Assembly (NCBI GenBank): GCA_021851065.1
Contig: JAJZJQ010000002.1
Location: forward strand, 4,750 to 68,749
Reading direction: 5' to 3'
Source: Candidatus Micrarchaeota archaeon
GTDB lineage: Archaea; Micrarchaeota; Micrarchaeia; Micrarchaeales; CABMGC01
DNA length: 64,000 nucleotides
The translations under genes and the position numbers were made by a program. This document shows positions 6,628 to 41,951 of the stretch, piece by piece (within the stretch, counting starts at the first letter, position 1; each line of letters begins with the position of its first letter). The notes below the pieces were generated by a model. That model was not told the origin of the DNA, did no database searches, and saw nothing but the letters and a program-made list of their open reading frames with translations.

Positions 6628-7203
6628 TCAATTCTGCTGTTCCTTCTTATCTGCGCTGACTCTTCCGCCTTGCCATTGGCCCTGGTAGGCCCGGCTAAGG
6701 TCCCCAACCACCACATGGAACACTATGTTGACAAATCTTGCGCCCAGCTCTAGCCTGAAGTTAGACGGACCCAGGTTGGCCATTGCGAACGTAAGCTCGC
6801 CGCTGTACCCGGGATCCGTCTTTGTTCCTCTAAAATAAATCCCTGCCCTCTGCAGGGTGCTGCGCGGATGGGCATCGGCCATCAGGAACGATGGCGCTAG
6901 ACCAGGTTCTATAATTATCTTCTCAGGTGGAAGGTTTACCTTTTCGATCGTCTTGACCAGTACGAACTGGCCTGGCTTTATTGCTACCTCCTTGTCTCCG
7001 TCCTTTATGTCTGCGATTTTCTTTGCTTGCGGGGTCTTGCGCTCGCTTTCGCCTAGAAAGCCTTCGCCTTCTATTGTGAATACCTCACCGGCCCTAAGGT
7101 CAAGGCCTACGCCCTCGGGATTGCTCTTCTCTCTTTCCGAGAGGTTTTCCACCAGATTGTATTTCTGGTTAAGTTCCAGTATCTTCTTTGCAGATAGTAT
7201 CAT
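6628..7203 (-). CDS. Second dCTP deaminase/dUTPase-superfamily protein (archaeal Dut-like paralog)
   Basis: MILSAKKILE N-terminus, GLDLRAGEVF, HPRSTLQRAGI..TKTDPGYSGELTFAMANLG. Start trimmed to the ATG at 7203; the track ORF extends to 7239. Lies 4 nt downstream of thyX. Confidence 0.75.
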   Translation of the reverse strand: MILSAKKILELNQKYNLVENLSEREKSNPEGVGLDLRAGEVFTIEGEGFLGESERKTPQAKKIADIKDGDKEVAIKPGQFVLVKTIEKVNLPPEKIIIEPGLAPSFLMADAHPRSTLQRAGIYFRGTKTDPGYSGELTFAMANLGPSNFRLELGARFVNIVFHVVVGDLSRAYQGQWQGGRVSADKKEQQN

Positions 7204-7207
7204 GCAA

Positions 7208-8830
7208 TCACGTTTTTGCTTTCTTGTCAAGCTCCTCAAGCTTCTTGTCTATCCTCTTCTCGCTGTCCATTCTTGCAAGTGCATAGTCGTTCATGTCGAC
7301 CTGTATGAACTCGAGCAGGGCAGGATGCACTTTCTCCACTTCCTTCTTCATGCTTTGCGCTATCTTCCTGTAGTCAGGATGGCCCTGCTTGCTCGACCTG
7401 AGCTCGGTGAGATGATACACTTCCCTAAGGTTCATCTTCATGTAGTAGCGCATGTGGTATGATCTTGGTACAAGGTACTGCGCCTCGATTGGCATCTCCC
7501 CCTCTATCTGCTGCTGTACCTGGGCCACATCCTCCATTAACTGTGCATACTCCTTGTCAAGCCCCACTGCCACAAGGTCCTGGGGCAGATCGTATCCAAA
7601 GCGCGTGGTGAGCCTTTGCTTGTCAAGAGTGAGCACCCTGTGCCTGTGCAGGTCCCTGAACATGCCGTAGTTGGAAAGTATCTCGAAAGTATAATAGGTG
7701 CTCTCAAGAGCCCTGCCCGGCTTATCCCTCCTGTTCCTCCTCTTGGATAGATAAGCTGTCACAAGCTCCTTGCGTCTATTCTCCGGCATGGCCTTTACTG
7801 TCTCCTTTAGGCTGTCCATTGATGCAGATGAATAACGATATAGCATGGCTGCAAGAACCCTGGCCTCGGCATCGCTATCGTATTCCGCAAGCTTTACATA
7901 TGCTTCCAACTGCCCGGATTCAGATGGAGGCATTACAGTCTTGCTTGCGAACTCAGCCATTGCTTCCCTTGTACCTATCAGATACTCTGAAGGCTGCGAC
8001 CTTCTCACGAAAGCAGGCATTATCTTGGCTAGCTCGGCATGCAACTGCCCTGCAAGCTGCACGCCCTCTGCAAGTTCTGATGAGTATAGCTTGGTTATGA
8101 GATACTCGAAGGCCCTGCCGTTGCCAAATAGCCCGACATTCGTGAGCCTTCCTGCAGTAAACATGTTCTTTAGCACGTCCAATGCCTTTGCGCGCGTTGC
8201 GCTCTCATATGCCCTTGGAGTCGTATCCTCTGCCCTGGGATTGTTCTCCTTCACGTACGATATCACCGTTGGGAGCCATTTGCAGTATAGATCGAATATC
8301 ATATCGTTGGTGCGCTCGTACAGGTCTGCGAATCTAGACCCCATGATCTTGGGGGAACGATACCAGAGATACTTGCCTGCGATTTTCTTGTCGAATGGTA
8401 TGTAGCGTGCAGACTTCTCAAGCGGAGAAATGCCAAGCCTTGAATCAGTCAGCAGGTCGCCTGCAAGGCTGGATACATTTTCGCATGCGATGTGGGCTCC
8501 TGCAAGCTCTGCCACTGAATCATCCCCATAACCAACCAATACCCTCTGGTAGAAATCTTCGGCCCTGCTTACTGCAATGCCTGATTCCGCTTTCTCCTTG
8601 TTCATGCTGCTTTCTATAATATCAGATATGTCCTTGTTAGGGATGAACTCATCCAGGAGCAGCCTTCTGGCACTCTTATCAGACCTGCTGTACCTTGAGA
8701 AGAGCGTACCCATAACCACTTCTGGAAGGTTCTTGAGCCCGAAGACGTGGCTGTCGGTATTGGTGAAGAATGGTTTTGCGATCTCCTTCTCCTTGTCGCT
8801 AAGGTCCACAGGGAAGGGTTCATCCGTCAT
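7208..8830 (-). CDS. thyX: Flavin-dependent thymidylate synthase, long (about 540 aa, two Thy1-like halves) form
   Basis: ThyX-like signatures LFSRYSRS, FRDLHRHR and YHLTELRSSKQGHPDYRKIAQ. Length is about twice that of canonical ThyX. The track ORF starts at a TTG (8860); the ATG at 8830 lies about 30 nt below a TATA-like TTTATACC. Confidence 0.7.
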   Translation of the reverse strand: MTDEPFPVDLSDKEKEIAKPFFTNTDSHVFGLKNLPEVVMGTLFSRYSRSDKSARRLLLDEFIPNKDISDIIESSMNKEKAESGIAVSRAEDFYQRVLVGYGDDSVAELAGAHIACENVSSLAGDLLTDSRLGISPLEKSARYIPFDKKIAGKYLWYRSPKIMGSRFADLYERTNDMIFDLYCKWLPTVISYVKENNPRAEDTTPRAYESATRAKALDVLKNMFTAGRLTNVGLFGNGRAFEYLITKLYSSELAEGVQLAGQLHAELAKIMPAFVRRSQPSEYLIGTREAMAEFASKTVMPPSESGQLEAYVKLAEYDSDAEARVLAAMLYRYSSASMDSLKETVKAMPENRRKELVTAYLSKRRNRRDKPGRALESTYYTFEILSNYGMFRDLHRHRVLTLDKQRLTTRFGYDLPQDLVAVGLDKEYAQLMEDVAQVQQQIEGEMPIEAQYLVPRSYHMRYYMKMNLREVYHLTELRSSKQGHPDYRKIAQSMKKEVEKVHPALLEFIQVDMNDYALARMDSEKRIDKKLEELDKKAKT

Positions 8831-14341: not shown

Positions 14342-14542
14342 TCACTTCCTGCTGTAGTTGATTATGTCATCAATCAGGTCCACATGGCCAAGAAGCATCC
14401 TTCTGCAGCAGTACCGTTTAACCTTAAGTCTGCTGAGCACTGCGCTCGGATCCTCCTTCTTCACCTGAGTAGCCTCCTTGAACTCTTCCCATTTGTCCCC
14501 CACGACCTGGCCGCATGAGAAACACCTAACAGGTATCATCAT
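14342..14542 (-). CDS. rpoN: DNA-directed RNA polymerase subunit N (Rpo10)
   Basis: [17 protein letters not shown]....[16 protein letters not shown], 66 aa. Confidence 0.9.
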
Positions 14543-14557
14543 AGTATCAACTTAGCA

Positions 14558-15115
14558 TCATCTGTAAGATTTCTGGAACCTTGCCCTTGCCTTTGGACCC
14601 TTGAATTTCTTCGGCTCGACTTCCCTGGTGTCGTCCACCAGCATGTGGCGGTCATAGCTCATGTAGAAGCTGCGCAGTGCATCTGGGGCCGCTGATGCCT
14701 TGACTATTGCCTTTGCTATTGCAGTTCTTGCTGCCTGGGCCTGGCCGCTGAATCCTCCGCCGTACACCAGGACGCTTATATCAGATGACTTTGCAACATC
14801 CGCAGCTGCGCTGGTGGAATTGATAGGTTCAAGTATGAGCTCCCTTATCTCACTAGGCTCCATGAGCTTTATGTCCCTGCCATTTATCGTAAGCTTGCCG
14901 TTCCCCCCGGGTATCAGGGATACCCTGGCCACAGCCCGCTTCCTCTTGCCCTTTGCAAGTACTGGTTTCTTGGTTGTCTTCTTCTTTGCAGCGCCTTTTG
15001 CTGCGCTGCGCCTTGCCTGTGGTTTTGCCTGAACTGCCTTTGGCTGGTAGAGGTTCTCAAGTTCTTTGTCTAGGTTCGATGTTCCTTTCTGTTCATTTGC
15101 CATGAATATCAGCAT
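14558..15115 (-). CDS. rps9: 30S ribosomal protein uS9 with a K/A-rich N-terminal extension of about 55 aa
   Basis: Core GKRKRAVARVSLIPGGNGKLTINGR ... KKFKGPKARARFQKSYR. The N-terminal extension is rich in K, A and Q. Confidence 0.9.
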   Translation of the reverse strand: MLIFMANEQKGTSNLDKELENLYQPKAVQAKPQARRSAAKGAAKKKTTKKPVLAKGKRKRAVARVSLIPGGNGKLTINGRDIKLMEPSEIRELILEPINSTSAAADVAKSSDISVLVYGGGFSGQAQAARTAIAKAIVKASAAPDALRSFYMSYDRHMLVDDTREVEPKKFKGPKARARFQKSYR

Positions 15116-15174
15116 TTTTTACCATATATCCGGATTCTGGAATCATATGAAGCGGCCTCGTAGTAACCATATAA

Positions 15175-15600
15175 TCATACCTTGTAACCGAGCTTCTCGG
15201 TTAACTCTTTTATGGTAATCACGTTCTCGAATATCTGCGCTGAAGGTTTTGACTTCACGTCGAACTTCTCACCTTTTATTCCGGCAGGGGAGCCCACGTA
15301 GACCCTAAGTTTCTTGAACGCGGCCTTGCCCTTTGGCTTTTTGTAGGGCAGCATGCCCCTTATGACCCTCTTGACGAACATATCCGGCCTGCGAGGCCAG
15401 TATGGAGAGTGTTCTGGATTTGCCTTGTCCTTGAGCTCAAGTAGCCTCTTGTATTTGCCGGATATGCCATGCTCATGCCCACTTATGACCATCTTCTCGG
15501 AGTTTATCACGCTTACAGTATTGTCATTGAGCAGCAGCTTGGCTACCTGGCTTGCTGCCCTTCCAAGCACCTTGTCCGATCCGTCAACAATGTATTCCAT
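15175..15600 (-). CDS. rpl13: 50S ribosomal protein uL13
   Basis: VDGSDKVLGRAASQVAKLLL, 141 aa, conserved position next to uS9. Confidence 0.9.
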   Translation of the reverse strand: MEYIVDGSDKVLGRAASQVAKLLLNDNTVSVINSEKMVISGHEHGISGKYKRLLELKDKANPEHSPYWPRRPDMFVKRVIRGMLPYKKPKGKAAFKKLRVYVGSPAGIKGEKFDVKSKPSAQIFENVITIKELTEKLGYKV

Positions 15601-15605
15601 GATTA

Positions 15606-15959
15606 TCAGATTATTATCCTGGCAGGCTTGCCTGAGAGCATGTCATTTATATCCACTATATCGCATTTTGCCGTCTTCAGTTTCTCGACAGCGCTGCCTG
15701 AGAAGTCGATTGCGGTTATTCTTATACTCTTGCTTATCTTCCCGTAGCCAAGAACCTTTCCAGGCACTATGATGCTGTCCTTCTCATTGGCGTACCGATT
15801 GAGCTTGTCAAGGTTGACGCTAACCCTCTGCCTCTTGGGCTTTGAAGACAATTTTATGAGGTATGAAAGCAGCTTGGGATTCTTGGAGCCGGCTTTGGCC
15901 TTCTCCAGGGACTCTATCCACTTTCTTATCTGGGTTTTTTCTATTCCTTCCATGAACAT
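15606..15959 (-). CDS. rpl18e: 50S ribosomal protein eL18 (L18e)
   Basis: KNPKLLSYLIKLSSKPKRQRVSVNLDKLNRY. Start trimmed to the ATG at 15959 so it does not overlap tRNA-Leu. Confidence 0.85.
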   Translation of the reverse strand: MFMEGIEKTQIRKWIESLEKAKAGSKNPKLLSYLIKLSSKPKRQRVSVNLDKLNRYANEKDSIIVPGKVLGYGKISKSIRITAIDFSGSAVEKLKTAKCDIVDINDMLSGKPARIII

Positions 15960-15967
15960 CACTTGGA

Positions 15968-16054
15968 TGCGGGGGGTGAGATTTGAACTCACGCAAACAC
16001 TAAAGTTACTGACCCCTCAAGCCAGCGCATTTGACCAGGCTCTGCCACCCCCGC
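15968..16054 (-). tRNA. tRNA-Leu (GAG)
   Basis: Acceptor GCGGGGG/CCCCCGC with A73, anticodon arm CUGGC-UUGAGGG-GUCAG, long variable arm, T-arm GUGAG-UUCAAAU-CUCAC. Sits in the conserved position upstream of L18e. Confidence 0.9.
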
Positions 16055-16066
16055 GCTTGAAGGCCA

Positions 16067-16636
16067 TCACTTCTTGACTTCTTTATGTACATCTTTCAAT
16101 TCACTGCTTATTATACCTAATGCCCTGTGCACTATGTCGATGGGCGGCATCTGGCCATACGTTTCAATGTAAAATTCAAAGGTGTTGTCGTCAACTGCCT
16201 TGTAAGTGACCAGGCCTGGCTGGAACTTCGAACTTTTCATGGCATTGCTGAATATGGCCTTGCCATCGACCTTGAGCTTCTGGCCCTCGGCTAGCTTTAT
16301 TATTGGTATATTGTCATTTGCCACCCCAATGCCCTTGGAGGTGCTTACCAGTTCCTTGGAGAGCACAGTCACAGGGCCCTCTGCAGACAGTGAGAAGACT
16401 ACCTCGTCATCCTCGCCATAGTCCTTTGGAGTCCTTATTGGTATTAACCCGATCCTGTGGGCTATGTATTCGTCGAACATTGCGCTGGAATTCTCGTAGA
16501 ACGTAACCTTGTCTATAGCCAGGCAGCCTACTGCGTTCATCATCGTCCTCCTGAAAGCGTTGGCAAATGAGAAGTTGGTTCCCTCAAGCCTGAAGCTCGC
16601 CGAAGTCTCGTCGCTGCTCAGAATCGTCAATTTCAT
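16067..16636 (-). CDS. rpoD: DNA-directed RNA polymerase subunit D (Rpo3), short form (189 aa)
   Basis: FANAFRRTMMNAVGCLAIDKVTFYENSSAMFDEYIAHRIGLIPI. No cysteine cluster is visible. Confidence 0.85.
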   Translation of the reverse strand: MKLTILSSDETSASFRLEGTNFSFANAFRRTMMNAVGCLAIDKVTFYENSSAMFDEYIAHRIGLIPIRTPKDYGEDDEVVFSLSAEGPVTVLSKELVSTSKGIGVANDNIPIIKLAEGQKLKVDGKAIFSNAMKSSKFQPGLVTYKAVDDNTFEFYIETYGQMPPIDIVHRALGIISSELKDVHKEVKK

Positions 16637-16813
16637 CGAAAAAGCCTTGCTAAAACTAGCTTATTAGTAAAGGAGATTTAGACGTTAACCTTTATAAATA
16701 TTGGCAACAAGTGGAATCGCAGGCTCGGCCAGCTGCCTGGGTGCGCAGCCTGGCAGTTTAAGAGGATATGGGCACTTCGCTCGCCATCCTGCGCAGGGCA
16801 GCAGAACACCCCA

Positions 16814-18942: not shown

Positions 18943-19016
18943 CTGAACATAATGGCTGCAGGGCGCATGTGCACCCAGCAGCCCAATCCCAAGACCCGCA
19001 TCCAACCGGCTTAACA

Positions 19017-19394
19017 TCAAGTGCTGAGCTGCAGCTGGACCATGCCATACTGCCTGTTCTGCACTGCGACCACCCTGCTCCTTATGATCTTCATACCAAG
19101 CTCAGTGAGGCCCAGTGGTTTGGGCCCCTCCCCCTTCTCGGTGAAGTCCACAATGCCCACCTTCTTGAGCTTCTTTAGCGTGTACCACACACCGCTCTTC
19201 GAGGCCTTGTACTTCTCGCTTGTGTAGTCCACGAAATCAGTTGCCGTAGGTATCAGGTTGAGCCCGATTTCATACATTAAAGTGAGCTCCTTTTCAGTAA
19301 CGCGCAGCTGACCGACATTTTCAATACTAGTTGTTTGTATAGGCATAAGAGCACCACCAGAAAGAGATTGGACTTTTTTGCTCTTATGCTGCAA
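19017..19394 (-). CDS. Winged-helix DNA-binding protein (MarR/ArsR-like), hypothetical regulator
   Basis: SGVWYTLKKLKKVGIVDFTEKGEG..PLGLTELG resembles a wHTH wing. Start possibly at 19346. Confidence 0.55.
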   Translation of the reverse strand: MQHKSKKVQSLSGGALMPIQTTSIENVGQLRVTEKELTLMYEIGLNLIPTATDFVDYTSEKYKASKSGVWYTLKKLKKVGIVDFTEKGEGPKPLGLTELGMKIIRSRVVAVQNRQYGMVQLQLST

Positions 19395-19548
19395 ACTTGT
19401 GATTGCATGAATTCATTCCGTATATGGCTATTACTGCTGTAGCTATGGTCGGCGTCAATGCCCTATCGAGCTTTGCGAACCATTGTGCCATATGCAACCC
19501 TTCAATCCTTACAATGGTTAGTCTGCAGGACACATATTTAAATCTTTC

Positions 19549-20421
19549 GTGCAAAAATCTTGTGTTTCAATGACAGGGTATACTCTCCTGAGCATCTCAG
19601 TCCTTCTGATAGTGGCAGCGGTATATGCCTTGTTTGACGTGCTCAATAAGCGCACGGTGCCAAACAAGTTCGCATTTCTGACCATCGTCATTGGAGTTGC
19701 GGTAGCTTTGCTCAATGGAAGTTATGAGCTTACTTTTGGCCTTGCATTTGCCATAGGCCTGCTCAGCTACGTGCTCTATAGGGTTGGTATGGTTGGCGGT
19801 GGAGATGTATTCGAGTTCGTCTTCGTGACACTCGCAATGCCGGTGTGGCAGCAGCCAGTATACGGTGGTTTTCAGTTCTTCATACCGTTTATAATATCAG
19901 TATTCATAGCTGCTGGGTACGCTTCGCTGCTTTTCATACCCATTTATTATCTCGTTATAAAGAAGCGCACAAAAATTGCTGACGGACCAAACAGGGAGAG
20001 CATCACCCTTGGTCTGGTAATGCTTGTAGGGTACATGATATTTCTGGCTGGGCTGTATGTGCTACTTGGGGTGAAACCCCTTGGCGTGGCGCTTGTTGGC
20101 GTGCTCGCAGTGGCATCCTTTGTAACAATACTGTATCAGAAGAGAGTTTACAACGGTATGGTGACCTTCGTCTATCCAAGGCAGCTGGAGGAGGGGGATA
20201 TGATAGCCACAAACCTAATGTCAAAAAGAGACATACAGCTGTTCAACAGCAAGACCAAGTTTGGCAGGCTTGCCACTGAGAAACTGATAAAGGACCTGAG
20301 GGGCGTGAAGAAGAAGATGCCGGTTTACAAGGACTCCGTTCCATTCTCTGCGTTCATGTTCATAGGCATTGTTGTCTCATTGCTCTTCGGCAACCTTATA
20401 CTGCTCATGGTAGGAGTATAA
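19549..20421 (+). CDS. Archaeal type IV prepilin/preflagellin peptidase (A24 family, PibD/FlaK-like)
   Basis: Polytopic membrane protein with both catalytic Asp contexts: ALFDVLNKRTVPN and GMVGGGDVFEF. Confidence 0.7.
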   Translation: MQKSCVSMTGYTLLSISVLLIVAAVYALFDVLNKRTVPNKFAFLTIVIGVAVALLNGSYELTFGLAFAIGLLSYVLYRVGMVGGGDVFEFVFVTLAMPVWQQPVYGGFQFFIPFIISVFIAAGYASLLFIPIYYLVIKKRTKIADGPNRESITLGLVMLVGYMIFLAGLYVLLGVKPLGVALVGVLAVASFVTILYQKRVYNGMVTFVYPRQLEEGDMIATNLMSKRDIQLFNSKTKFGRLATEKLIKDLRGVKKKMPVYKDSVPFSAFMFIGIVVSLLFGNLILLMVGV

Positions 20422-20431
20422 CTGCGCGGTA

Positions 20432-20480
20432 GCAATTGGGCCGCCTGGATTCTGCGCCACGGTTAATGTCCATCATATTA
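20432..20480. repeat. Possible degenerate distal copy (F) of the island repeat
   Basis: GCAATTG...CGGTTAATGTCC...CATATTA aligns weakly (about half the positions) to repeat A. Sits exactly where GC drops, after the peptidase gene. Confidence 0.25.
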
Positions 20481-20534
20481 TGTGGCATTCGATAAGTATA
20501 TTTAAGACCTCTTTGTTTAATATGGTTTGATAGG

Positions 20535-20870
20535 ATGCCTACGGCAAATGTATATTATGGAGACGGAGAAATCTATTCATCGTTGGTGCCAATAACACAT
20601 AAACTGAAAGAGTACTTAGCTGGAAAACTGACATGCAACGAAATCATACTTGAGGAAAATGAGATAAGCATAAGGTTCGTGGAAACAAATGGCGAAGGCA
20701 TGCTAGGCGACGTAGAATTAGAGATTACTGCTTACGAGTTTCCTGATAGGGTGAAGAAACAGGATGCGATATGCCATGACATAAAACAGTACATAGAACG
20801 GGAATGCCCGGCTGCCGGAGATGTAAGGGTATGGCTAAAACTCTGCAAGCTAGGGCATGATGTTCTATAA
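20535..20870 (+). CDS. Hypothetical protein (Pro-2 N-terminus; tautomerase-superfamily-like is only a guess)
   Basis: 111-aa ORF starting MPTANVYYG. No firm motif. Confidence 0.5.
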   Translation: MPTANVYYGDGEIYSSLVPITHKLKEYLAGKLTCNEIILEENEISIRFVETNGEGMLGDVELEITAYEFPDRVKKQDAICHDIKQYIERECPAAGDVRVWLKLCKLGHDVL

Positions 20871-20923
20871 AATAAGCACTATAGACAGAGGGGTATTTGC
20901 AATGCGCGCTTTTGTAGAGAATG

Positions 20924-21739
20924 TTACACATCATTTGTAATTATATCTACTAAAGAAGTTGTGTTTATGTATTCAGGTTTCCACCCTGCTAACCCAGAAT
21001 TCTGCTCGCCGTGGTCCTCGAAGTAGATATAGGTATTGCCTTTCCATCCGCTAAACTGATAAAATTTGCCTCCATTGGAATATGAAACTATAGACAGAAC
21101 ATAGGCTACTCCGTTTCTAGTGCCGTTTAGCCTTGTTATATTAGTGACTGTAAGGTTAGCTATGGGTATCGCTCGGTTAGAATAGTTGTAACTCATATAT
21201 GTGCTGAGGTCTTCGTTGAATATGCTTTGGGCTTCGCCCGTTTGCACTACGTACTCAAATACAGAAACATCCTTTGAGTAATTTCCTATAATAACAGTAG
21301 AACCGCCAGTAAAGGTAAATCCTTCTGACTGCAGTGTTTGGCCTTCGTAGCTTATGCCCTGTACTGTCAATGATGGAGTCATATTGTAAGTCCCCTGGCC
21401 AATTCCATAATAACTTCTGGCAGTATAGTTGGGGAAAGCGACACCAGTAAACAAGGTTTCTGCCTGGGCCTTGGTTATGCCACCAGTATTATTTGTTGTG
21501 GCAGTTTGCTGTGTTGTAGTTGCTATCGAACCTCCTTGAACTGTGGTAGTTGGATTGGTTGTCGTGGAAATTTTGGGTGAATTTGCCCCAGCCAGGAAAT
21601 AATAACCAGTGCCTAAAACAACCAATACTATGATAATGCCAGCAGCGTATGGAAGTTTGCTTCCTGAGTTGGTGGGTGGATTGGTGGGGGGAGTTCTGAT
21701 CGGCTGATCAAGGGCAGGTTGCTGATAGTTAGGGTCCAT
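20924..21739 (-). CDS. Hypothetical membrane-anchored extracellular protein
   Basis: P/T-rich N-terminus, one TM (YAAGIIIVLVVLGTGYYFLAG), a T-rich linker, then a domain of about 190 aa with NxS/T sequons. Confidence 0.55.
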   Translation of the reverse strand: MDPNYQQPALDQPIRTPPTNPPTNSGSKLPYAAGIIIVLVVLGTGYYFLAGANSPKISTTTNPTTTVQGGSIATTTQQTATTNNTGGITKAQAETLFTGVAFPNYTARSYYGIGQGTYNMTPSLTVQGISYEGQTLQSEGFTFTGGSTVIIGNYSKDVSVFEYVVQTGEAQSIFNEDLSTYMSYNYSNRAIPIANLTVTNITRLNGTRNGVAYVLSIVSYSNGGKFYQFSGWKGNTYIYFEDHGEQNSGLAGWKPEYINTTSLVDIITNDV

Positions 21740-21870
21740 TTACTCACGGCAGATTATTAGGGTAAGGAGATATTTATAAAACTTTAGGGGGATTTGCTCC
21801 CACCACTAATGCGCGGTCCTATGTACAATTATGCCATCATGTAGCTTCGGAAGTCGGACATGCCTAAGGC

Positions 21871-21927
21871 GACAAGCGTAACTGCTCCCATCGGAAGATG
21901 CAATCCGGTTAAGTGCCTACCGGATAT
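21871..21927. repeat. Island repeat A (tRNA-Glu 3'-end-derived)
   Basis: GACAAGCGTAACTGCTCCCATCGGAAGATGCAATCCGGTTAAGTGCCTACCGGATATT. Shares the core and also the flank CAAGCG-AA-TGCTCCC with the sequence next to the tRNA (GGCAAGCGCAATTGCTCCC). Confidence 0.6.
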
Positions 21928-21999
21928 TAATATCGTAACGGTCTTGGCTTTTGTCCCTTTACTTATGGTTTTTTATATTGTGTTAGCCATATTAGCCCC

Positions 22000-22299
22000 A
22001 TGGTAAATGTACAGGCGGGCAGCCCTATAATCAAAAGGAGGATGAACCCGCTCGTGTTTTTGTTGACATGCGTTCTTGGTTATGTGGCTATCTTTGTTCT
22101 TTTTGTTGTACTATCTTTTTGGATTTTCTTGTTGTGGTTTATTGTTATATTTGCTACTATACCAATATACATCAAGGCAGTTAGATCCACCTCGCCAACT
22201 GCATACGTCTTTGCTTATGTGTTTACTTCTTCTTTTATGGGAGGGCCCATAACCAACGTTATTGCGGCTTTGGTTTTAGGTAGGCACGGATTGCTTTGA
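22000..22299 (+). CDS. Small multi-TM membrane protein, hypothetical
   Basis: 99 aa with 3 hydrophobic helices. It is the sole ORF between repeats A and B. Confidence 0.45.
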   Translation: MVNVQAGSPIIKRRMNPLVFLLTCVLGYVAIFVLFVVLSFWIFLLWFIVIFATIPIYIKAVRSTSPTAYVFAYVFTSSFMGGPITNVIAALVLGRHGLL

Positions 22300-22304
22300 A
22301 GTCA

Positions 22305-22347
22305 TGCTCCATCGGGAATATACCTTCCAGTTAAATGCCCGCCGTAC
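22305..22347. repeat. Island repeat B
   Basis: TGCTCC-ATCGGGAATATACCTTCCAGTTAAATGCCCGCCGTA. About 40/43 identical to repeat C. Confidence 0.7.
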
Positions 22348-22400
22348 GTCCTGCATTATTAAGTTCTAATACCATAAATGCTGCAATCTTGACATCCGAC

Positions 22401-23096
22401 CTAAGTTTTCATGCATTTGTAGACTATGTTCGGAGCCACTTTGGTTTCGTCCAACCAACCTTTTCCCTTGGCTAAGGGGTACGACGCCTTGACAAGTTTG
22501 AAACCAGCCTGTGAGATGGCCCTGTGGTAATCCTGCTCAGTCCAATATGTGTCCTTTATCGTAAAAGAGGGCCTACCATTTATCACGGTGTCAACTCTGT
22601 CTCCGCTTTTTAGGCCTTTTTTTCTCTTGGTATAACCTACCTTATATTCATGTCCAAGAGCTTTAGGATTAGAGGTGACTATCACTAGGGTAGAGCTCGG
22701 CTTTAGCACCCTATAAATCTCAGTAAGCACGGCTAACATCTCCTTTGTGGTCCTTGATTCCACGAGCATGTGAGCAGTAAAAGCGGAGTCGAAATAGCTA
22801 TCTCTGAAAGGGATCCGCCCAGTAACGTTATAAAACGCGAGTCCGTGGCTGTTGTATTTCTTCTTCGCCAAGCGTATCATTTCTTTGTTTATATCGGCAC
22901 CTATTACTGTCCTTGCCCCTAGCGCCTTCACGAACATCGTTGACCTACCAGCGCCACAACCGAAGTCAAGTACTGCCTTGCCTCTAAGCGAGTTGCTGAA
23001 CATTCTGGCGGCGCACCTGAAGGCAGGTTCAGTAGTAGTGTTTACTATGCCAAGAGCAGCAAACGATTCGACTTGCGAGCTTGAATATTTGTGCAT
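22401..23096 (-). CDS. Class I SAM-dependent methyltransferase
   Basis: Motif I VLDFGCGAGRST, followed by the usual acidic post-I residue (GADIN) and a Methyltransf_11/25-like core. Confidence 0.85.
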   Translation of the reverse strand: MHKYSSSQVESFAALGIVNTTTEPAFRCAARMFSNSLRGKAVLDFGCGAGRSTMFVKALGARTVIGADINKEMIRLAKKKYNSHGLAFYNVTGRIPFRDSYFDSAFTAHMLVESRTTKEMLAVLTEIYRVLKPSSTLVIVTSNPKALGHEYKVGYTKRKKGLKSGDRVDTVINGRPSFTIKDTYWTEQDYHRAISQAGFKLVKASYPLAKGKGWLDETKVAPNIVYKCMKT

Positions 23097-23102
23097 AATT
23101 AA

Positions 23103-23302
23103 TCATTGGACATAAAGTTCAAAAACCATATAGATGATTCTGTACTGCCCCACTTCATCTACAAAGAATAAGCTCTTCTTTAAGTGCCGCTTGCTGGGAT
23201 GAGTTAGTATCTTATTAATCTTTTGGCCACTCGCTCTTTTACGATGTTGTCCAAATCCTGGAAGTAACTAGGCCATTCCTGGTCGTACTTCGCTTTGTAC
23301 AT
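23103..23302 (-). pseudogene. Frameshifted, C-terminally short RelE/ParE-family toxin remnant
   Basis: The ATG lies 5 nt after the RHH stop. Frame 0 gives MYKAKYDQEWPSYFQDLDNIVKERVAKRLIRY-stop. The -1 frame continues KINKILTHPSKRHLKKSLFFVDEVGQYRIIYMVFELYVQ-stop, which has the RelE-like G-YRIIY core. The shift is near an A-run (CCAAAAGA). Confidence 0.5.
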
Positions 23303-23307
23303 GGCTA

Positions 23308-23550
23308 TCAATTTACGTACTTGGCATAGGTACCCAGAGCTTCCTTGCTATTTAGAGTCTTTCTCTTTCCTTCTCTGATCTCCTTGTTGATCCTATCTAA
23401 CTTCTTCTTGACCATGGTCTCTTCAACATTGTGCTGCTCTCCGAAGGTAAGTATCGCAAGCCGTATAGCTTCCGACTTGGTATTGGCGTATCCTTCTGAA
23501 ATCATATCTTCAAGCATCTGGTGCACTTTGCCTCTTAGAATAACATTCAT
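23308..23550 (-). CDS. Ribbon-helix-helix (CopG/ParD-like) antitoxin or regulator
   Basis: 80 aa. MNVILRGKVHQMLEDMISEGYANTKSEAIRLAI fits an RHH fold. Sits upstream of the RelE-like remnant. Confidence 0.75.
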   Translation of the reverse strand: MNVILRGKVHQMLEDMISEGYANTKSEAIRLAILTFGEQHNVEETMVKKKLDRINKEIREGKRKTLNSKEALGTYAKYVN

Positions 23551-23648
23551 GTCATTACCTAGAGTATATTATGTATTCCATGATTTAAATATGTTCCGTT
23601 TATGTACCATTATAGCACATAAAACACGTAGTTCTAACATTATCCTGG

Positions 23649-23691
23649 TGCTCCCATCGGGAATATACCTTCCAGTTAAGTGCCCACCGTA
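23649..23691. repeat. Island repeat C
   Basis: TGCTCCCATCGGGAATATACCTTCCAGTTAAGTGCCCACCGTA. Its first 14 nt are identical to the tRNA-Glu 3' end (25893..25906). Confidence 0.7.
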
Positions 23692-23749
23692 TATCTGGGA
23701 GTATATGAAGATATGCGTTTCTTGGTGATATAGGCACATCGTATGGGTA

Positions 23750-23801
23750 TGTTTCCTGAAGGAAACAATATTTAAATAGTTATGTTTCCTATAGTAAACA
23801 T
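23750..23801. promoter_or_regulatory. Operator-like palindromes around a TATA-like box upstream of the ATPase gene
   Basis: TGTTTCCT-GA-AGGAAACA (23750..23767), then ATATTTAAATA, then ATGTTTCCTATAGTAAACAT (23782..23801). The motif TATGTTTCCT occurs twice. The ATG is at 23802. Confidence 0.3.
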
Positions 23802-25106
23802 ATGATAGAAAGGGATTTGATCAAGAGGGTAGTCTCAGAGGCTCTGCAGTTTACATTGCCTAAAAGCATGCCCAGGGATATAGAGTTAGGCAGCATTTCA
23901 AATAAGATAATAACAATTGCTGGCATCAGGAGAAGTGGCAAAACATACGAGCTCTACAACAAAATAAAGGAACTTGAGAGTAAGGGGGTAAAAAGGCAGA
24001 ACATCTTTTACATTAACTTTGAGGATGAAAGGTTGCGTGGAATTGCAGCGGATGAACTTGACTATATAATTGACTTGTATAAGGAACTATCTGGATTTGA
24101 TAGGAATTCTGCAATATGCCTGTTTTTCGACGAGATACAGAATATAAACGGGTGGGATATGTGGGTGCGCAGACTCTATGAGAGAGGCTACAAAATCTTT
24201 ATAACCGGATCTTCATCGAAGTTGCTAAGCAGAGAAATAAGCACGCATTTGGCTGGAAGGAATCTGACTTACTTGGTGTATCCGTTCTCTTTTGCGGAGT
24301 TTCTGCGCTCTAGGGAAATAAGATATGAGGGGAAGGAGCTTTACTCAAAACCAGGAGAATTCAATAGTTACGTGTCAGAGTATATGGACTTTGGCGGCTT
24401 CCCGGAGGTTGTGGTAGCAGGGTCACAAGAAGAAAAGATCAGGATACTAAAATCATATTATGATGCCATAATTTATAGGGACATAATTGATAGGTATAAA
24501 ATAAAGGACACGGATATGCTTTCCGTAGCGCTTAGGTATGCTATAGGTTCCTATTCGAAACACTTTAGTGCATCAAAGATGCACAATTATTTTGCAAGTA
24601 ACAGGATGAAGATCAGCAAGAAGACGCTTAATGAGATGGCAAAATATGCCGAATCTGTATTTTTATTCTCCACTGTGTACAAGTTTTCACCTAGCTTCAA
24701 GAAGTCGTTCCAGTCACGAAGAAAGCTTTACCTGACAGACACGGGATTTGTTAGGGTGCTGGCTGGCATGCAGGATTATGGCAGATTGCTAGAAGGGATA
24801 GTTTACGTTGAGCTTCTCAGGAGGAAAGAAAGAGCCCAGTCATCAGAAATATTTTATACTGAGAACAAAAAGGGGGAGGTGGACTTCGTAGTTTCGGAAG
24901 GCCTGAAGCCAACAGAACTTATACAGGTAACTTATGACCTGAATAGAGAAAATGAAGAGAGAGAAATCCTGCCTTTACTGGAATCGATGGATGAGTTTGG
25001 ATTGAAAAGCAGCACGATTATTACAATGTCAGAAAACGCACAGAGAAAGGAAGGTAAGAAGACCGTAAACATTGTCTCATTCGCGCGGTGGGCATTAAGT
25101 GTTTGA
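23802..25106 (+). CDS. AAA-family ATPase with DUF4143-type C-terminal domain (COG1373-like archaeal ATPase)
   Basis: Walker A GIRRSGKTY and Walker B LFFDEIQ. The 434-aa size and architecture are typical of this abundant archaeal family. Confidence 0.85.
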   Translation: MIERDLIKRVVSEALQFTLPKSMPRDIELGSISNKIITIAGIRRSGKTYELYNKIKELESKGVKRQNIFYINFEDERLRGIAADELDYIIDLYKELSGFDRNSAICLFFDEIQNINGWDMWVRRLYERGYKIFITGSSSKLLSREISTHLAGRNLTYLVYPFSFAEFLRSREIRYEGKELYSKPGEFNSYVSEYMDFGGFPEVVVAGSQEEKIRILKSYYDAIIYRDIIDRYKIKDTDMLSVALRYAIGSYSKHFSASKMHNYFASNRMKISKKTLNEMAKYAESVFLFSTVYKFSPSFKKSFQSRRKLYLTDTGFVRVLAGMQDYGRLLEGIVYVELLRRKERAQSSEIFYTENKKGEVDFVVSEGLKPTELIQVTYDLNRENEEREILPLLESMDEFGLKSSTIITMSENAQRKEGKKTVNIVSFARWALSV

Positions 25107-25127
25107 TCCCCAAGCTGGCCTTACATT

Positions 25128-25170
25128 AGCCCCATCGGGAAGTTGCATTCTAGTTAAGTGCTCAACAGAT
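25128..25170. repeat. Island repeat D (more diverged)
   Basis: AGCCCCATCGGGAAGTTGCATTCTAGTTAAGTGCTCAACAGAT. Keeps CCCATCGGGAA and TAGTTAAGTGC. Confidence 0.55.
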
Positions 25171-25203
25171 ATTGGCGTATATGCAGTAATGTACGATAAT
25201 ATC

Positions 25204-25824
25204 TTACAGTTTCTTCTGAAGTAAGACATTGAATTTCCTATCCTTGAAATGAAACTTGATAGTGTTGTAGTCCCTAAAAAGGCTTTTGAACTCTTTTTTT
25301 GTAAAGTAATGATAATAATCCCCTCCTTTACCGTGCTGGTAAGTTCCTTTTTCGTTTGTTTTGACCTGACCATAAAACTGTTTTCTTTTCCATACGTATT
25401 GTTGATCGCTTTCAACGTATACATACCCTCCGTTCTTCGTTATCCTATGAATCTCCTTGATATACTTCTTTATTCCTGCTAATCTTGCCTGGTATAATGC
25501 ACGTACTATAATTACAGCATCGAAAAAGTTATTTCTGTAAGGTAACTCGCCTGTTAACTTCAGTAATCTAATGTGCATCTTCCTGTTGGTTTCTTTTTGC
25601 CTTTTTCTTAAAGAGGCTATGGCTGTTTTTGATCTGTCAAAACAATAAACATCAAAACCTTTCTGCGCAAGGAATATTGAATTTCTGCCTGTGCCGCAAT
25701 AAAAATCGAGAAGTTTATCTACATTTTCCTTCTTGAAAAACTTACTTAGATTGTACATACTTGATGATGGCTTGTGCTGTCCTACTCCTCTGCCCTTATA
25801 ATAACGTTCATATGGATCTGGCAT
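25204..25824 (-). CDS. Class I SAM-dependent methyltransferase
   Basis: Motif I LLDFYCGTGRNSIFLAQKGFDVYCFDRS. 206 aa. Confidence 0.8.
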   Translation of the reverse strand: MPDPYERYYKGRGVGQHKPSSSMYNLSKFFKKENVDKLLDFYCGTGRNSIFLAQKGFDVYCFDRSKTAIASLRKRQKETNRKMHIRLLKLTGELPYRNNFFDAVIIVRALYQARLAGIKKYIKEIHRITKNGGYVYVESDQQYVWKRKQFYGQVKTNEKGTYQHGKGGDYYHYFTKKEFKSLFRDYNTIKFHFKDRKFNVLLQKKL

Positions 25825-25892
25825 TGACTTACCTTTTGGTGATCTCTTCCTGCCTTTCGGGATTTTGACCCGCCTCAGACGGCAAGCGCAAT

Positions 25893-25967
25893 TGCTCCCA
25901 TCGGGATTTGAACCCGAGTTGCGGGGTTGAAAGCCCCGCGTCCTTGGCCGGACTAGACGATAGGAGC
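25893..25967 (-). tRNA. tRNA-Glu (UUC)
   Basis: Acceptor GCUCCUA/UGGGAGC with A73, D-arm GUCU..GGAC, anticodon arm CGGGG-CUUUCAA-CCCCG, T-arm UCGGG-UUCAAAU-CCCGA. 75 nt. Confidence 0.92.
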
Positions 25968-26033
25968 GTGGTTATAACTCTGCGCCATTATAAATAAGCT
26001 TATCGCTAATGAACAGCTTGGGCGGATGAAGAG

Positions 26034-26645
26034 ATGGATGGCTTGTTTGTGTGCTTTGAAGGCATAGATGGATCTGGGAAGACAGTTCAGGCCCAGATGC
26101 TCAAAGAAGCGGCTGTGGGGAAGGGTAGAAGATGCATATTGCTATCGTACCCAGATTATGGTTCTGAATACGGCAGGCTTATTGAGCGGTATCTTAAGGG
26201 AGAAGAGAAGAAGGATGTCAGGGAGCTATTCCTTATCTTCCTTGCGGATATGGTCAAGAATGATGCACTTGTGAGGCGGGAGGTAGGAGGCGGTAGCGTG
26301 GTGATAAGCAACCGCTACATGTATTCTACAACTGCATACCAATGCGCAGCTGGTTTTGACTATGACAGCGCAAGGGCAATACAAAAGAGCATAGGTCTTG
26401 AAGTGCCTGATATTGTTTTCTACCTGGATATACCTGCAAAGGTTGCTTACAGCAGGAAAATCGCACAGAAAGGCAGTGCGGACAAATTCGAGAAGGATTC
26501 GGCCTACCTAAACAAAGTCAGGTCTATGTACAATAGGCTTATGGGCGATGGACACATGGGCGAGGAGTGCATTAGTATTGATGGAAGCGCAGCTAAGGAG
26601 CAGATACATGAAGCTGTGATCGGCAAGGTTGGCAGATTGCTTTAG
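26034..26645 (+). CDS. tmk: Thymidylate kinase
   Basis: FVCFEGIDGSGKTVQAQML P-loop, DRY-like NRYMYST. 203 aa. Confidence 0.9.
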   Translation: MDGLFVCFEGIDGSGKTVQAQMLKEAAVGKGRRCILLSYPDYGSEYGRLIERYLKGEEKKDVRELFLIFLADMVKNDALVRREVGGGSVVISNRYMYSTTAYQCAAGFDYDSARAIQKSIGLEVPDIVFYLDIPAKVAYSRKIAQKGSADKFEKDSAYLNKVRSMYNRLMGDGHMGEECISIDGSAAKEQIHEAVIGKVGRLL

Positions 26646-26656
26646 GTTAAGCAAAA

Positions 26657-26935
26657 CTACCTGCCAAGGTCGTCGACTTCCTCCTTTTTCGCTTCCTGGG
26701 CTCCGCCAACCGGAGCAGACACAAGAACCACATCGCTGACGTTCTTTACGTTGCGGTACAGAACGCTCTTGTTCTTGAGCAATCCCTTTGTGTCGCCCTT
26801 GGCATTTTTCCAGGGAACCATAAGCAGCCTGCTGACTTCTCCCTTCTCAAGGTCTATTATAACATCCTGGACCTCGCCAAGGTACTGGCCTGCATCGCTA
26901 TATATGTCCATACGATATATTTCGGAGAGCCTCAT
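26657..26935 (-). CDS. PRC-barrel domain protein
   Basis: IYRMDIYSDAGQYLGEVQDVIIDLEKGEVSRLLM. The start is set at the ATG that forms an ATGA overlap with the upstream ORF's stop. The track ORF extends to 27004. Confidence 0.7.
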   Translation of the reverse strand: MRLSEIYRMDIYSDAGQYLGEVQDVIIDLEKGEVSRLLMVPWKNAKGDTKGLLKNKSVLYRNVKNVSDVVLVSAPVGGAQEAKKEEVDDLGR

Positions 26936-27285
26936 TGAATACGCCTCGTATATATTCGAGGATGCGAATTTATAAAGCTTGCAGATGTCGGCGGGACTTC
27001 CCATATACGATTAACGCATGACTGCAACAGGCACTGCAGGCCACATGTCATGCTGTTTTTGGGCCATGCTGCTTTTGGATAGTATGTCGTACCTATATTC
27101 GTCTTTTGTCTATGATGCCTGTTTAGTTTTAATAGTGGTGCGCGCACCATAACTGGGGTTTTTATGACAAAAATAACTAGAAGCAAAATAGCTACACCAA
27201 CCACTGATGCGATGGGGCCTGTTGCGGCGAAAACGCACATAAGGGATGGGTCTGAAAAATTGAGTGGTGCAAGATCCATGAGCAA
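26932..27285 (-). CDS. Hypothetical small membrane protein
   Basis: 117 aa with one TM (IASVVGVAILLLVIFVI). Its stop overlaps the PRC-barrel ATG (ATGA). The C-terminal half has odd composition. Confidence 0.3.
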   Translation of the reverse strand: MLMDLAPLNFSDPSLMCVFAATGPIASVVGVAILLLVIFVIKTPVMVRAPLLKLNRHHRQKTNIGTTYYPKAAWPKNSMTCGLQCLLQSCVNRIWEVPPTSASFINSHPRIYTRRIQ

Positions 27286-27374: not shown

Positions 27375-28535
27375 TCATGGCTGCATCCAGTCTATTTCGT
27401 AATAGTTGTTGCGGCTTCCAGCAAGCTTTATCTCCCTCACCACATAATATGTGACTGCAGTTTCCCTGTCAGCTATTGCCAGAACCGGCTCAAGGCCCAG
27501 GGATCTTGCAGCAGAGATTGCAGTGGCAAATTCGCCACCGCCTATGTATTCCTCCTCGCCAAGCGATAGCATGGCATAGCGCGGCTTGGAATTGGATGGA
27601 TTCTGAGTATCCCCGCCCTTCCTGTGGTACAGCACATAGTCTACCCTGGTCCTTGCCGAGCCGTGAATTCCAGGAACAGCCAGTATGAATGTCTTTCTGA
27701 CAGAATGTGCAACCCGTATGGCTCTTGCCCATTCCGATATAAGCAGCTTGGACTCCCTTGGGAACACGTGGATCACGTGCCTTGAATGGACCCACTCCTT
27801 GCTATTTTCCCCGCTGCCTGCTGGCCTGGTTCCTGGAAAATAGAGCCTGAAGTGGGTGCCAAACTTGAACCCTGTCTTCACAACATAGCCCTTGCTGCGC
27901 CAGTCTGCATATACACCGTACATTCTGTCGAAATCCTTGCGCCTTGACCTGGCGAACCTTAGCACATCCTTGCGCGTAGCGTTTTGCAGCTTGAGCACGC
28001 CCTTTGACATGAGAAATATGGTCTCGTATATGTCTAGTTTGTTTAGCCTGCCTCTGCCGGCGGCCTTGTATGAGCCGTATTGCCCAAACCACCAGCGCTC
28101 GTAAAGCGCCTTGCCCATGTCACCGTCTTCCGATATTGTGAGAAGGTCTGATTTGAAGAATGTGCCGCAAAGCCCCTTGCCCCTGGGAAGCGAGGCCTTA
28201 GAGCGCGTGTACTTCTTTGCCTTTTGAATAGCGCCATAGCTTAGTGCATCCGGGCTTCTTGCCACAAGGCCGCGCTCGCGCCAGTCGCGCAAAGTGAAGT
28301 ACCTGGCAGCAAATCTGCCAGACTTCCAGTATCTTGACGCCAGGCTGCTGAAAGTGGCGTCCCCTTTTGGAGTTGCACACACTGCACCCCTGGCATCCAT
28401 AAGGTATAGTGCTTCCTCAGGGAGCAGGATTATATTGGAGCCTGAGCGTTCGCCAAAGAAGCCGTGTCTTAGGGTATCTGCACTGGATGGATCAGTAACA
28501 AGGAACTTTCCATGCAAGTGCTCTATTCGTATCAC
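27375..28535 (-). CDS. endA: tRNA-splicing endonuclease, long three-unit (epsilon-type, ARMAN-like) architecture
   Basis: EndA N-domain-like ILLPEEALYLMDARG. Catalytic-domain motifs GYVVKTGFKFGTHFRLYFPG and WVHSRHVIHVF. An extra C-terminal EndA-like unit is present (KTFILAVPG..VDYVLYHRKGG). At 386 aa it is about twice a homotetrameric EndA. GTG start. Confidence 0.85.
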   Translation of the reverse strand: MIRIEHLHGKFLVTDPSSADTLRHGFFGERSGSNIILLPEEALYLMDARGAVCATPKGDATFSSLASRYWKSGRFAARYFTLRDWRERGLVARSPDALSYGAIQKAKKYTRSKASLPRGKGLCGTFFKSDLLTISEDGDMGKALYERWWFGQYGSYKAAGRGRLNKLDIYETIFLMSKGVLKLQNATRKDVLRFARSRRKDFDRMYGVYADWRSKGYVVKTGFKFGTHFRLYFPGTRPAGSGENSKEWVHSRHVIHVFPRESKLLISEWARAIRVAHSVRKTFILAVPGIHGSARTRVDYVLYHRKGGDTQNPSNSKPRYAMLSLGEEEYIGGGEFATAISAARSLGLEPVLAIADRETAVTYYVVREIKLAGSRNNYYEIDWMQP

Positions 28536-37795: not shown

Positions 37796-37882
37796 TGCGC
37801 CAGCCGGGATTTGAACCCGGGTTACAGCCTGTTTCCTTGGAAAATGGGAAGGCCGTGTCCTACCAGCCTAGACTACTAGCGC
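37796..37882 (-). tRNA. tRNA-Gly (CCC) with 14-nt canonical intron (37/38)
   Basis: Acceptor GCGCUAG/CUGGCGC with A73, D-arm GUCU..GGAC, anticodon stem CGGCC/GGCUG interrupted as UUCCCA[UUUUCCAAGGAAAC]A, T-arm CCGGG-UUCAAAU-CCCGG. 87 nt, 73 after splicing. Confidence 0.85.
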
Positions 37883-41176: not shown

Positions 41177-41180
41177 CTTC

Positions 41181-41471
41181 TTACCTCCCTATCTCTATCT
41201 TTTTCTTTGTCCTCATGCCCACTACGCGCTCGCTTGTCTTCTTGCACTGTGCGCATTCTACCATTACCTTCTGCTTCTTGCCAAGCTTTTTTGGGTGAAT
41301 TTTGGGCTCTATGCTGCCAACATATCCGCGTATTGCGCGGTTGTGCCTCCTGGTTCCGAGGCTGAGGCCTCTTTGTGGCTTTTTGTTGTATGTGCGCACA
41401 ACATGCTTTGTGTGTTTATTGCAGAACCTGCAGTATGACATTATCTCCTTGCTTATTTTCATCTTTATCAC
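41181..41471 (-). CDS. rpl44e: 50S ribosomal protein eL42 (L44e)
   Basis: YCRFCNKHTKHVV ... ECAQCKK zinc ribbon. Basic, 96 aa. Confidence 0.85.
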   Translation of the reverse strand: MIKMKISKEIMSYCRFCNKHTKHVVRTYNKKPQRGLSLGTRRHNRAIRGYVGSIEPKIHPKKLGKKQKVMVECAQCKKTSERVVGMRTKKKIEIGR

Positions 41472-41475
41472 TTCG

Positions 41476-41937: not shown

Positions 41938-41951
41938 AGTATCAACAGGGT

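Follow-up and report, generated by a model that had tools for sequence, protein, structure and literature searches.

How does a short stretch of foreign DNA beside a tRNA gene come to be divided into parcels of one or two genes, each bounded by the same repeat? The question is raised by contig JAJZJQ010000002.1 of Candidatus Micrarchaeota archaeon (assembly GCA_021851065.1), of which a continuous stretch of 64,000 nucleotides, hereafter called the window, was analyzed. In it, the 3' end of a tRNA-Glu(UUC) gene (25893-25967, minus strand; found by ARAGORN, with an Rfam tRNA score of 59.4 bits), which is the integration target, faces an AT-shifted segment of ~5.5 kb. The GC content of this island, calculated in 1-kb windows, is 0.40-0.44, compared with ~0.50 on both sides; its single units have a GC content of 0.37-0.43 against 0.497 for the remainder of the window, and the GC content at third codon positions is 0.38-0.52 in the units against a comparison range of 0.49-0.63. 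The composition of the island is foreign, and the drop in GC content that a first-pass annotation of this DNA had noticed is borne out by both measures. We consider the island to be largely a fossil accretion array that arose from serial site-specific integration at the 3' end of tRNA-Glu(UUC) next to tmk, and would put the probability of this reading at about 55%. It starts from features that are observed directly, namely the repeats, the structure of their junctions, the foreign composition, the recurrence of the repeat in three genomes, and the presence of an integrase element at the same tRNA.

The repeat is ~45 nt long and occurs in four copies on the same strand, starting at 21884, 22306, 23650, and 25129. 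Each copy opens with 13-14 nt that are antisense to the very end of tRNA-Glu(UUC), TGCTCCCATCGGGA, and continues with ~32 nt foreign to the tRNA, in which A-N6-TTCCAGTTAAGTGCCCACCGTATAT is common to the copies. A degenerate pattern derived from the consensus of the first-pass annotation, CCATCGGN{0,1}AANNNNNNNTCNNGTTAANTGC, has four matches, all on the plus strand, at 21888, 22309, 23654, and 25132, and none in shuffled sequences or elsewhere in the 64 kb. With R1, a sequence-only covariance model of the repeat, the four copies reach 48-59 bits and E values of 1e-14 to 1e-17. Pattern and model thus agree with the earlier observation of four recurrences of the tRNA end in one orientation, and the non-tRNA part, first put at about 30 nt, is indeed shared. 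The core TGCTCCCATCGGGA (25893-25906 on the plus strand), which is the presumed crossover region, is the only part common to the tRNA and the repeats, and identity with the tRNA ends after GGGA in every repeat copy of all three genomes. The four sites are not equally faithful to the tRNA: the exact 13-nt core is found only in copy C (23646-23700, plus strand, 59.2 bits), while the cores of copy A (21879-21932, plus, 50.8 bits, E 9e-15) and copy B (22300-22354, plus, 48.2 bits) have a 1-nt deletion and that of copy D (25122-25178, plus, 52.6 bits) has two substitutions. The open reading frame (ORF) map places all four copies between genes, as had been stated before, and the core of copy B begins 6 nt past the stop codon of a 99-aa ORF.

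The repeat has further parts on either side of this common stretch. A left, P-type arm lies beside copy A (21846-21883, plus strand) and is 78% identical to the arm at the tRNA-proximal junction (25856-25892, plus), which sits between the start of a 206-aa methyltransferase gene and the tRNA. The stretch common to copy A and this junction amounts to 49 nt with 78% identity (21846-21894 versus 25856-25904; family D3), and is therefore longer than the flank first seen beside the tRNA. On the right arm, a second conserved block, AATATACGA, recurs in three copies at a fixed spacing of ~31 nt further along, which suggests a composite arm rather than a minimal core site. The heptamers TATGTAC and ATATACG were considered as arm motifs and discarded, being too common in the window to count. 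A weak fifth copy had been proposed at 20432-20480, but it gives no R1 match at E<=10, and its best local alignment to the consensus is equalled by 14% of random window segments. The segment to which it belongs (20422-21845, GC content of 0.43, with no strand assigned), containing 111-aa and 271-aa ORFs without homology to the genes at the same position in relatives, is counted in the island by composition, and its left edge is without a detectable repeat. Of the units listed in the first-pass annotation, the four bounded by repeats stand, and the 111-aa/271-aa segment lacks the repeat expected on its left.

Among 185,579 species-representative genomes scanned for the pattern, three loci were retrieved, of which one is a chance match and two are real, and both real loci adjoin tRNA-Glu. 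A repeat scattered at unrelated sites, which had been named beforehand as fatal to the idea of cassette capture at the tRNA, is thus seen neither here nor in the 64 kb beyond the island. The first locus (L019/L028) belongs to the Micrarchaeota metagenome-assembled genome (MAG) DBS2-1.bin97, where the host GC content is ~0.60 and that of the units ~0.43. Inward from the host core gene Ham1, it comprises the repeat, a 165-aa NUDIX gene, the repeat again, and a 337-aa Zn-dependent alcohol dehydrogenase gene, followed by a 58-nt partial tRNA-Glu, an element designated E2, the intact tRNA-Glu, and tmk; the NUDIX unit is therefore bounded by the repeat, and the alcohol dehydrogenase unit lies between a repeat and the partial tRNA. 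At the second locus (L021), one HhH-GPD glycosylase gene is enclosed by a full and a truncated repeat, both of which run opposite to the tRNA, and the arm of the partial copy (L21p) is cut at the stop codon of this cargo gene. The unit sits within 3.4 kb that are delimited by the tRNA on one side and a copy of the 3' half of this tRNA on the other, beside an IS630-type transposase. The MAG is labelled "bacterium," and its tRNA-Glu(CUC) is of the archaeal type.

When the three genomes are taken together, the repeat is 75-93% conserved between hosts with GC contents of ~40%, 50%, and ~60%, and the cores of six of the eight copies are mutated. Each of the seven repeat-bounded units, 0.42-1.5 kb in length, holds an intact gene or two in either orientation, and the distance from its cargo ORFs to the neighboring repeats is 6-100 nt. 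Their GC content is ~37-46% in all hosts, whatever the GC content of the host. No cargo is common to any two of the three arrays, and no integrase domain is found in the scanned ORFs of any repeat unit, including their precomputed Pfam annotations. The closest homologs of the ATPase cargo of the window and of the alcohol dehydrogenase (75% and 67%, and 60% and 59% identity, respectively) have no flanking repeat. The closest homologs of the alcohol dehydrogenase unit (59-60% identity) are directly followed by maf, and in L030 (5614-7390) the gene is situated immediately downstream of an intact tRNA-Glu(UUC), a hint that imprecise excision could recruit neighbors of tRNA-Glu as cargo. Two paralogous small-ORF modules flank the glycosylase unit (L021:5486-5766 and 6990-7329), each of which consists of a ~45-aa basic helix-turn-helix (HTH)-like ORF (…KKKIKEGK…) and a 49-68-aa ORF.

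Integrase-bearing elements do occur at this tRNA, which makes it a proven target. E2 (L028:2838-9990, corresponding to L019 5641-8000 and beyond) is an integrative element of ~7 kb and ~35% GC at tRNA-Glu that encodes PemK, a MazG-like protein, a PadR-type HTH protein, an SLFN/DUF2075-type helicase, and a Phage_integrase protein, and its cargo looks like a defence island. The ORF of the integrase runs through the 3' part of the tRNA, and the piece for the N terminus is located at the opposite end of E2, where it extends into the partial tRNA. Judged by its sequence, E2 is of the Sulfolobus spindle-shaped virus (SSV) type, i.e., it has the "suicidal" integrase arrangement described in PMC7253208 and PMC8371274, with the att site inside the int ORF. 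Its att comprises 58 nt of duplicated tRNA and five GGGTTCAAA (T-arm-like) motifs, distributed on both arms. Relatives of the E2 integrase in viral contigs are limited to one weak match, without the repeat. TGTCGTCG motifs, which are also present at the ends of E2, occur twice just downstream of the tRNA-Glu(CUC) at L021.

The population from which the window derives shows both constancy and change. Exact-protein look-ups found this sequence again in assemblies from ENA, JGI, Logan, and NCBI, GCA_027345505.1 among them, and the overlapping contigs are 99.9-100% identical. Presence or absence of single cassettes among strains, which the first-pass annotation had suggested looking for, does not appear in 13 contigs from several assemblies and samples, all of which have the same order of units. 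The JGI contig L004 (3300033990) matches the window from the tRNA rightwards, except for two single-nucleotide changes in the 3' part of the tRNA (25901 T>C and 25923 G>A, each giving a G-U pair) and for its left flank. At the 3' end of the tRNA, L004 has a different 23 nt (L004:1-110 versus window 25869-25967), which are 18/24 identical to the start of the C-terminal part of the E2 integrase (NQIFDDKL versus NAICEDKL). To judge from this flank, an E2-family integrase element has inserted at the tRNA-Glu of the window in part of the population. Several assemblies also break inside the tRNA, those from Logan at 25920 and 25941, and together with the integrase flank of L004 these breaks make the site a live hot spot. 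The earlier statement that there is no recombinase in sight remains correct for the window itself, where neither the scanned ORFs nor the precomputed annotations of 9570-36645 include an integrase, resolvase, or transposase Pfam domain, but it is misleading for the population because the integrase gene of the variant strain abuts the same tRNA. A 14-nt sequence at 21793-21806 (plus strand), GATTTGCTCCCACC, is identical to the integrase/tRNA junction of L004 and is a weak candidate for a relic of a second att type, with a chance-match estimate of ~1e-3 and no significance in a generic alignment test. The idea that the left arm is homologous to the beginning of the C-terminal part of the E2 integrase was also dropped, as it was not convincing.

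The thymidylate kinase encoded by tmk has its closest named relatives in Candidatus Micrarchaeota. The adjacency of tRNA-Glu and tmk is kept in the relatives L022, L023, L024, and L028, and relatives with 46-50% tmk identity show a syntenic order of A24-like membrane protein, variable gap, tRNA-Glu(UUC), and tmk. The gap contains no repeat in L022-L024; it is filled with other genes, so that no empty site was recovered. L023, from the Micrarchaeota MAG GCA_028866995.1, encodes at 14437-16689 a 750-aa RadA/Rad51 with an intein (Intein_splicing, LAGLIDADG), compared with 316-321 aa for RadA of the window.

For a fossil accretion array, we infer the following mechanism of recombination, sequence of integrations, and loss of the integrase. 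A series of small related integrative elements would each have recombined with the terminal 13-14 nt of the tRNA, most likely by the action of a tyrosine recombinase. The attP would have been the same in all of them and would have combined a core identical to the tRNA 3' end with a conserved right arm of ~32-70 nt, to which some elements added a left arm. The tRNA would be rebuilt at each event, and each event would leave an attL-type junction, composed of the core and an element arm, at the far end of the new element, with the older units pushed inward. If attP is written as P-core-P', internal junctions should read P(previous)-core-P'(next), the distal junctions should keep P', and the tRNA-proximal one should keep P; the shared right arm would then correspond to P', and the left arm of copy A and of the tRNA junction to P. 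Every internal junction does consist of the core and the same right arm, as tandem integration predicts, and the foreign DNA, on the 3' side of the tRNA, is bounded by direct repeats that correspond to the tRNA 3' end and keep its orientation. The integrase, now absent from the units, might have been deleted in a streamlined, deletion-prone genome, or some units might never have had one. Age and decay are indicated by the mutated cores, the truncated RelE-like gene in one unit, the cut arm of L21p, and the invariance over the 13 contigs, and because most cores have since mutated, the array would now be largely a fossil that delivered accessory genes. Serial tRNA-targeted integration followed by decay, one of two origins considered in the first-pass annotation, accordingly has in its favor the attL-type anatomy, the degenerate cores, and the truncated toxin gene, but it is left without a cognate integrase.

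Several observations weigh against this reconstruction. A cognate integrase, or an autonomous relative with the same att, was found neither in the window nor at L019/L028 or L021, nor did pattern scans of genomes, metagenomes, and viruses reveal an element with both this repeat and an integrase: the metagenome and the three viral scans gave nothing or a chance match inside a gene (L018), and a BLAST search with the repeat against phage and plasmid collections gave no match. The att of E2 differs from the repeat, in which the GGGTTCAAA arm motifs are absent. No fragment of an integrase was seen in any of the seven repeat-bounded units of the three genomes; the packing of cargo ORFs, 6-100 nt from the next core, is tighter than random deletion predicts; and what is supposed to be nonfunctional debris is 75-93% conserved across hosts of very different GC content. 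In addition, the distal-most junction that would be expected at the left edge of the island is undetectable.

These points bring up another origin, tentative but worth serious thought, in which the units are integrase-less cassettes, i.e., one- or two-gene circles with a 45-nt att-like site that were inserted at the 3' end of tRNA-Glu by a recombinase from elsewhere in the genome or from a co-resident element, in an integron-, satellite-, or cis-mobilizable element (CIME)-like manner. Seven units of 0.42-1.5 kb in three genomes, all with intact, unrelated genes and no trace of an integrase, would fit such an origin, as would the tight packing exemplified by the 6 nt between the 99-aa ORF and core B, the sharp left boundary of the repeat at the tRNA end, its conservation over host GC contents of ~0.40 to ~0.60, the unit GC content of ~0.37-0.46 regardless of host, and the visits of integrase-bearing elements to the same tRNA. 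Small, intact, integrase-free units, a conserved repeat, and a uniform GC content are easier to explain if some units moved in trans. Against this stand the lack of any unit common to different arrays, the nearest homologs of two cargo genes, which are not flanked by the repeat, the identical unit order in the 13 contigs of the population, the indels or substitutions in most cores, the mixed gene orientation, and the upstream regions that the units apparently possess for themselves. No candidate recombinase is linked to the repeat, and no free or master element carrying it turned up. The units are att-bounded and without a recombinase, as CIMEs are, whereas signs of mobility are wanting in the contigs, the arrays, and the cargo homologs alike. 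The integron-like array that the first-pass annotation had offered as its other origin keeps its small, intact, integrase-free units but not its machinery, since the repeat is not an attC, there is no IntI, and neither polymorphism nor a free form was seen. As positive evidence for mobilization in trans is missing, the fossil array is ranked first and cassettes moved in trans second.

Two further explanations would remove the repeat from the business of integration or make its conservation a by-product, and we regard both as very improbable. One supposes that the conserved arm is a remnant of an SSV-type integrase gene spanning its own att, so that the conservation reflects protein coding. The neighboring E2 is exactly of this type, one frame on the sense strand of the tRNA is open across all copies (…HLTG..PDGS), and the left arm of copy A differs from that of the tRNA junction synonymously in four of nine changed codons. 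Substitutions among seven copies are nevertheless spread over the codon positions as 6, 7, and 8, without a 3-base periodicity, and the left-arm pattern of 2:4:6 by position is not significant; 1-nt indels separate the copies, the upstream peptides are unrelated, and in two copies in-frame stops occur 7-9 codons upstream, with no start in between in one and a possible TTG only in the other. An att inside an int ORF with flanking intN and intC is found in E2 and in none of the repeat units, and for the right arm the coding explanation can be regarded as largely refuted. The other supposes that the repeat has nothing to do with integration and is a generic dispersed element or signal. Candidates would be a miniature inverted-repeat transposable element (MITE), a terminator, a regulatory RNA, and a split-tRNA exon, and the short inverted repeat GGAA-N6-TTCC with its AT-rich tail might speak for such an identity. 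A MITE should, however, have many dispersed copies with terminal inverted repeats, whereas the copies in the 64 kb are confined to the island and those elsewhere to the three loci described above, the two real ones being beside tRNA-Glu. A terminator is hard to reconcile with the absence of a T-run and the mixed orientation of genes relative to the repeat, and the tRNA-derived part, mutated in most copies, cannot serve as a tRNA exon. The repeat matches no Rfam family (a scan of 19000-27000 at E<=1 returned only the tRNA), and the conserved secondary structure that the first-pass annotation had suggested checking, for example the GGAA-N6-TTCC hairpin, did not materialize: the consensus fold has just -2.3 kcal/mol and five pairs with no compensatory change, and the recurring stem is only the 3-4 bp of GGAA/TTCC.

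Serial integration at a tRNA hot spot is a known archaeal phenomenon. Tandem integration, loss of the integrase after integration, and gene capture at tRNAs are established in archaea (PMC8371274), and gene capture at archaeal tRNA genes, with SSV-type and other archaeal tyrosine integrases, is treated by She et al. 2001, as cited in PMC8371274, and in PMC7253208. The island resembles these systems in that the 3' part of a tRNA is targeted, tRNA-derived direct repeats bound compositionally distinct segments, elements are stacked at one locus, the integrase can be lost, and an SSV-type element occupies the same tRNA (L028 and L004). Unlike the archaeal elements described, however, its repeats share 13-14 nt with the tRNA and then an arm of 32 nt or more conserved across genomes, and its units, in a DPANN host, lack flanking intN/intC and are far smaller (0.4-1.5 kb). 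Serial tRNA integration that leaves scattered partial tRNAs is also seen with the tycheposons of Prochlorococcus (10.1101/2020.12.28.424599), where, as here, successive events at one tRNA push older elements inward, degenerate remnants and partial tRNAs are scattered, and most of the material is no longer recognizable as an element; tycheposons are bacterial, though, and have integrase and replication modules, and no shared non-tRNA arm bounding single genes has been described for them. The accretion arrays formed by CIMEs, integrative and conjugative elements, and integrative and mobilizable elements (PMC5704250, PMC7563491) likewise consist of att-flanked tandem units that lack recombination genes and can be moved by an incoming integrase, but they are bacterial and linked to conjugation, and their att is common to an identified autonomous partner, of which none is known for the island. 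The likeness to integrons and to CALINs, which are attC clusters without an integrase, lies in small units of diverse cargo with one conserved repeat each and no adjacent integrase. The island nevertheless has neither IntI beside an attI nor the attC hairpin with its R''/L''-L'/R' inverted repeats, its anchor is a tRNA end instead of attI, and its units are of mixed orientation instead of being co-oriented and mostly promoterless; the string GTTAAGT in the repeat fits GTTRRRY, but a conserved partner RYYYAAC is absent. Integrons reported in Archaea are classical attC/IntI systems (PMC9668308). The island is thus outside the integron family and inside the broad class of tRNA-anchored tandem integration arrays, in which its very small integrase-less units, the combination of a short tRNA core with a long conserved non-tRNA arm, and the DPANN host make it distinct.

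DPANN archaea are host-dependent organisms with tiny genomes, and to our knowledge their acquisition of accessory genes is poorly documented. In Micrarchaeota, the tRNA-Glu/tmk junction is a landing pad used time and again: one MAG and a variant strain have an SSV-type integrase element there, and three genomes have single-gene units bounded by the repeat. Should these units be fossils, they represent a clean example of how serial integration and deletion make a compact accessory-gene array from mobile elements; if they were mobilized in trans, they would constitute an archaeal cassette system independent of integrons. It is possible, although less likely than not, that Micrarchaeota, and perhaps other DPANN archaea, practice a non-integron form of cassette capture, in which recombinase-less circles with a ~45-80-nt att that mimics the tRNA end are stacked in trans at tRNA-Glu, and this would provide genome-reduced symbionts with a dedicated docking site for accessory genes from a shared pool of ~40% GC.

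The cargo of the four repeat-bounded units of the window is diverse, and gene orientation across the units runs +, -, -, +, -. Unit 1 (21933-22299, plus strand) contains the 99-aa ORF mentioned above (22000-22299), a membrane protein without a Pfam or PHROG match. Unit 2 (22355-23645, minus) contains a 231-aa S-adenosylmethionine (SAM) methyltransferase (22401-23096; Pfam Methyltransf_11, E 8e-17), a 35-aa RelE-like N-terminal remnant (23204-23311), and an 80-aa ribbon-helix-helix (RHH)-like ORF (23308-23550). The RHH/RelE assignment of the first-pass annotation looks right by eye, but neither small ORF has a Pfam match; on these labels, the unit would hold a decayed toxin-antitoxin pair whose toxin gene is truncated. 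Unit 3 (23701-25121, plus) carries the 434-aa ATPase (23802-25106), with AAA_14 and DUF4143 domains (Pfam E 4e-37 and 2e-19), which has ~100 nt of its own upstream sequence after the repeat. Two palindromic repeats of 20-25 nt (ATGTTTCCTGAAGGAAACA and TGTTTCCTATAGTAAACATA) at 23743-23802, just upstream of the ATPase start, may be an operator. In several independent assemblies, contigs end or start inside the ATPase gene at 24464, 24467, and 24607 (window 24464-24607), suggesting a near-identical paralog or a strain variant in those communities, and an exact-protein look-up found the ATPase in no other context. Unit 4 (25179-25855, minus) carries the 206-aa protein (25204-25824; GC content of 0.35), also a SAM methyltransferase by Pfam. 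Its frame is open upstream, via the left arm, into the 3' end of the tRNA (…PDGSNCACRLRRVKIPKGRKRSPKGKS-MPDP…; 25825-25920, minus), and since no TATA box is obvious in the interval from the tRNA to the methyltransferase gene, the latter may depend on transcripts that start at the tRNA promoter and read through.

Elsewhere in the window, a second, mild dip in GC content to 0.43-0.46 is seen at 41000-43150, around tRNA-Met (42069-42145) and tRNA-Lys (43074-43149), where a 153-aa ORF of unknown function and a TFIIE-alpha-like ORF of 271 aa are located and no copy of the repeat is found. At 37796-37882, ARAGORN predicts a tRNA of undetermined identity with a 4-base anticodon (attt), which is probably intron-containing or otherwise noncanonical; this agrees with the presence of a long (341-386 aa), two-domain tRNA splicing endonuclease at 27375-28535.

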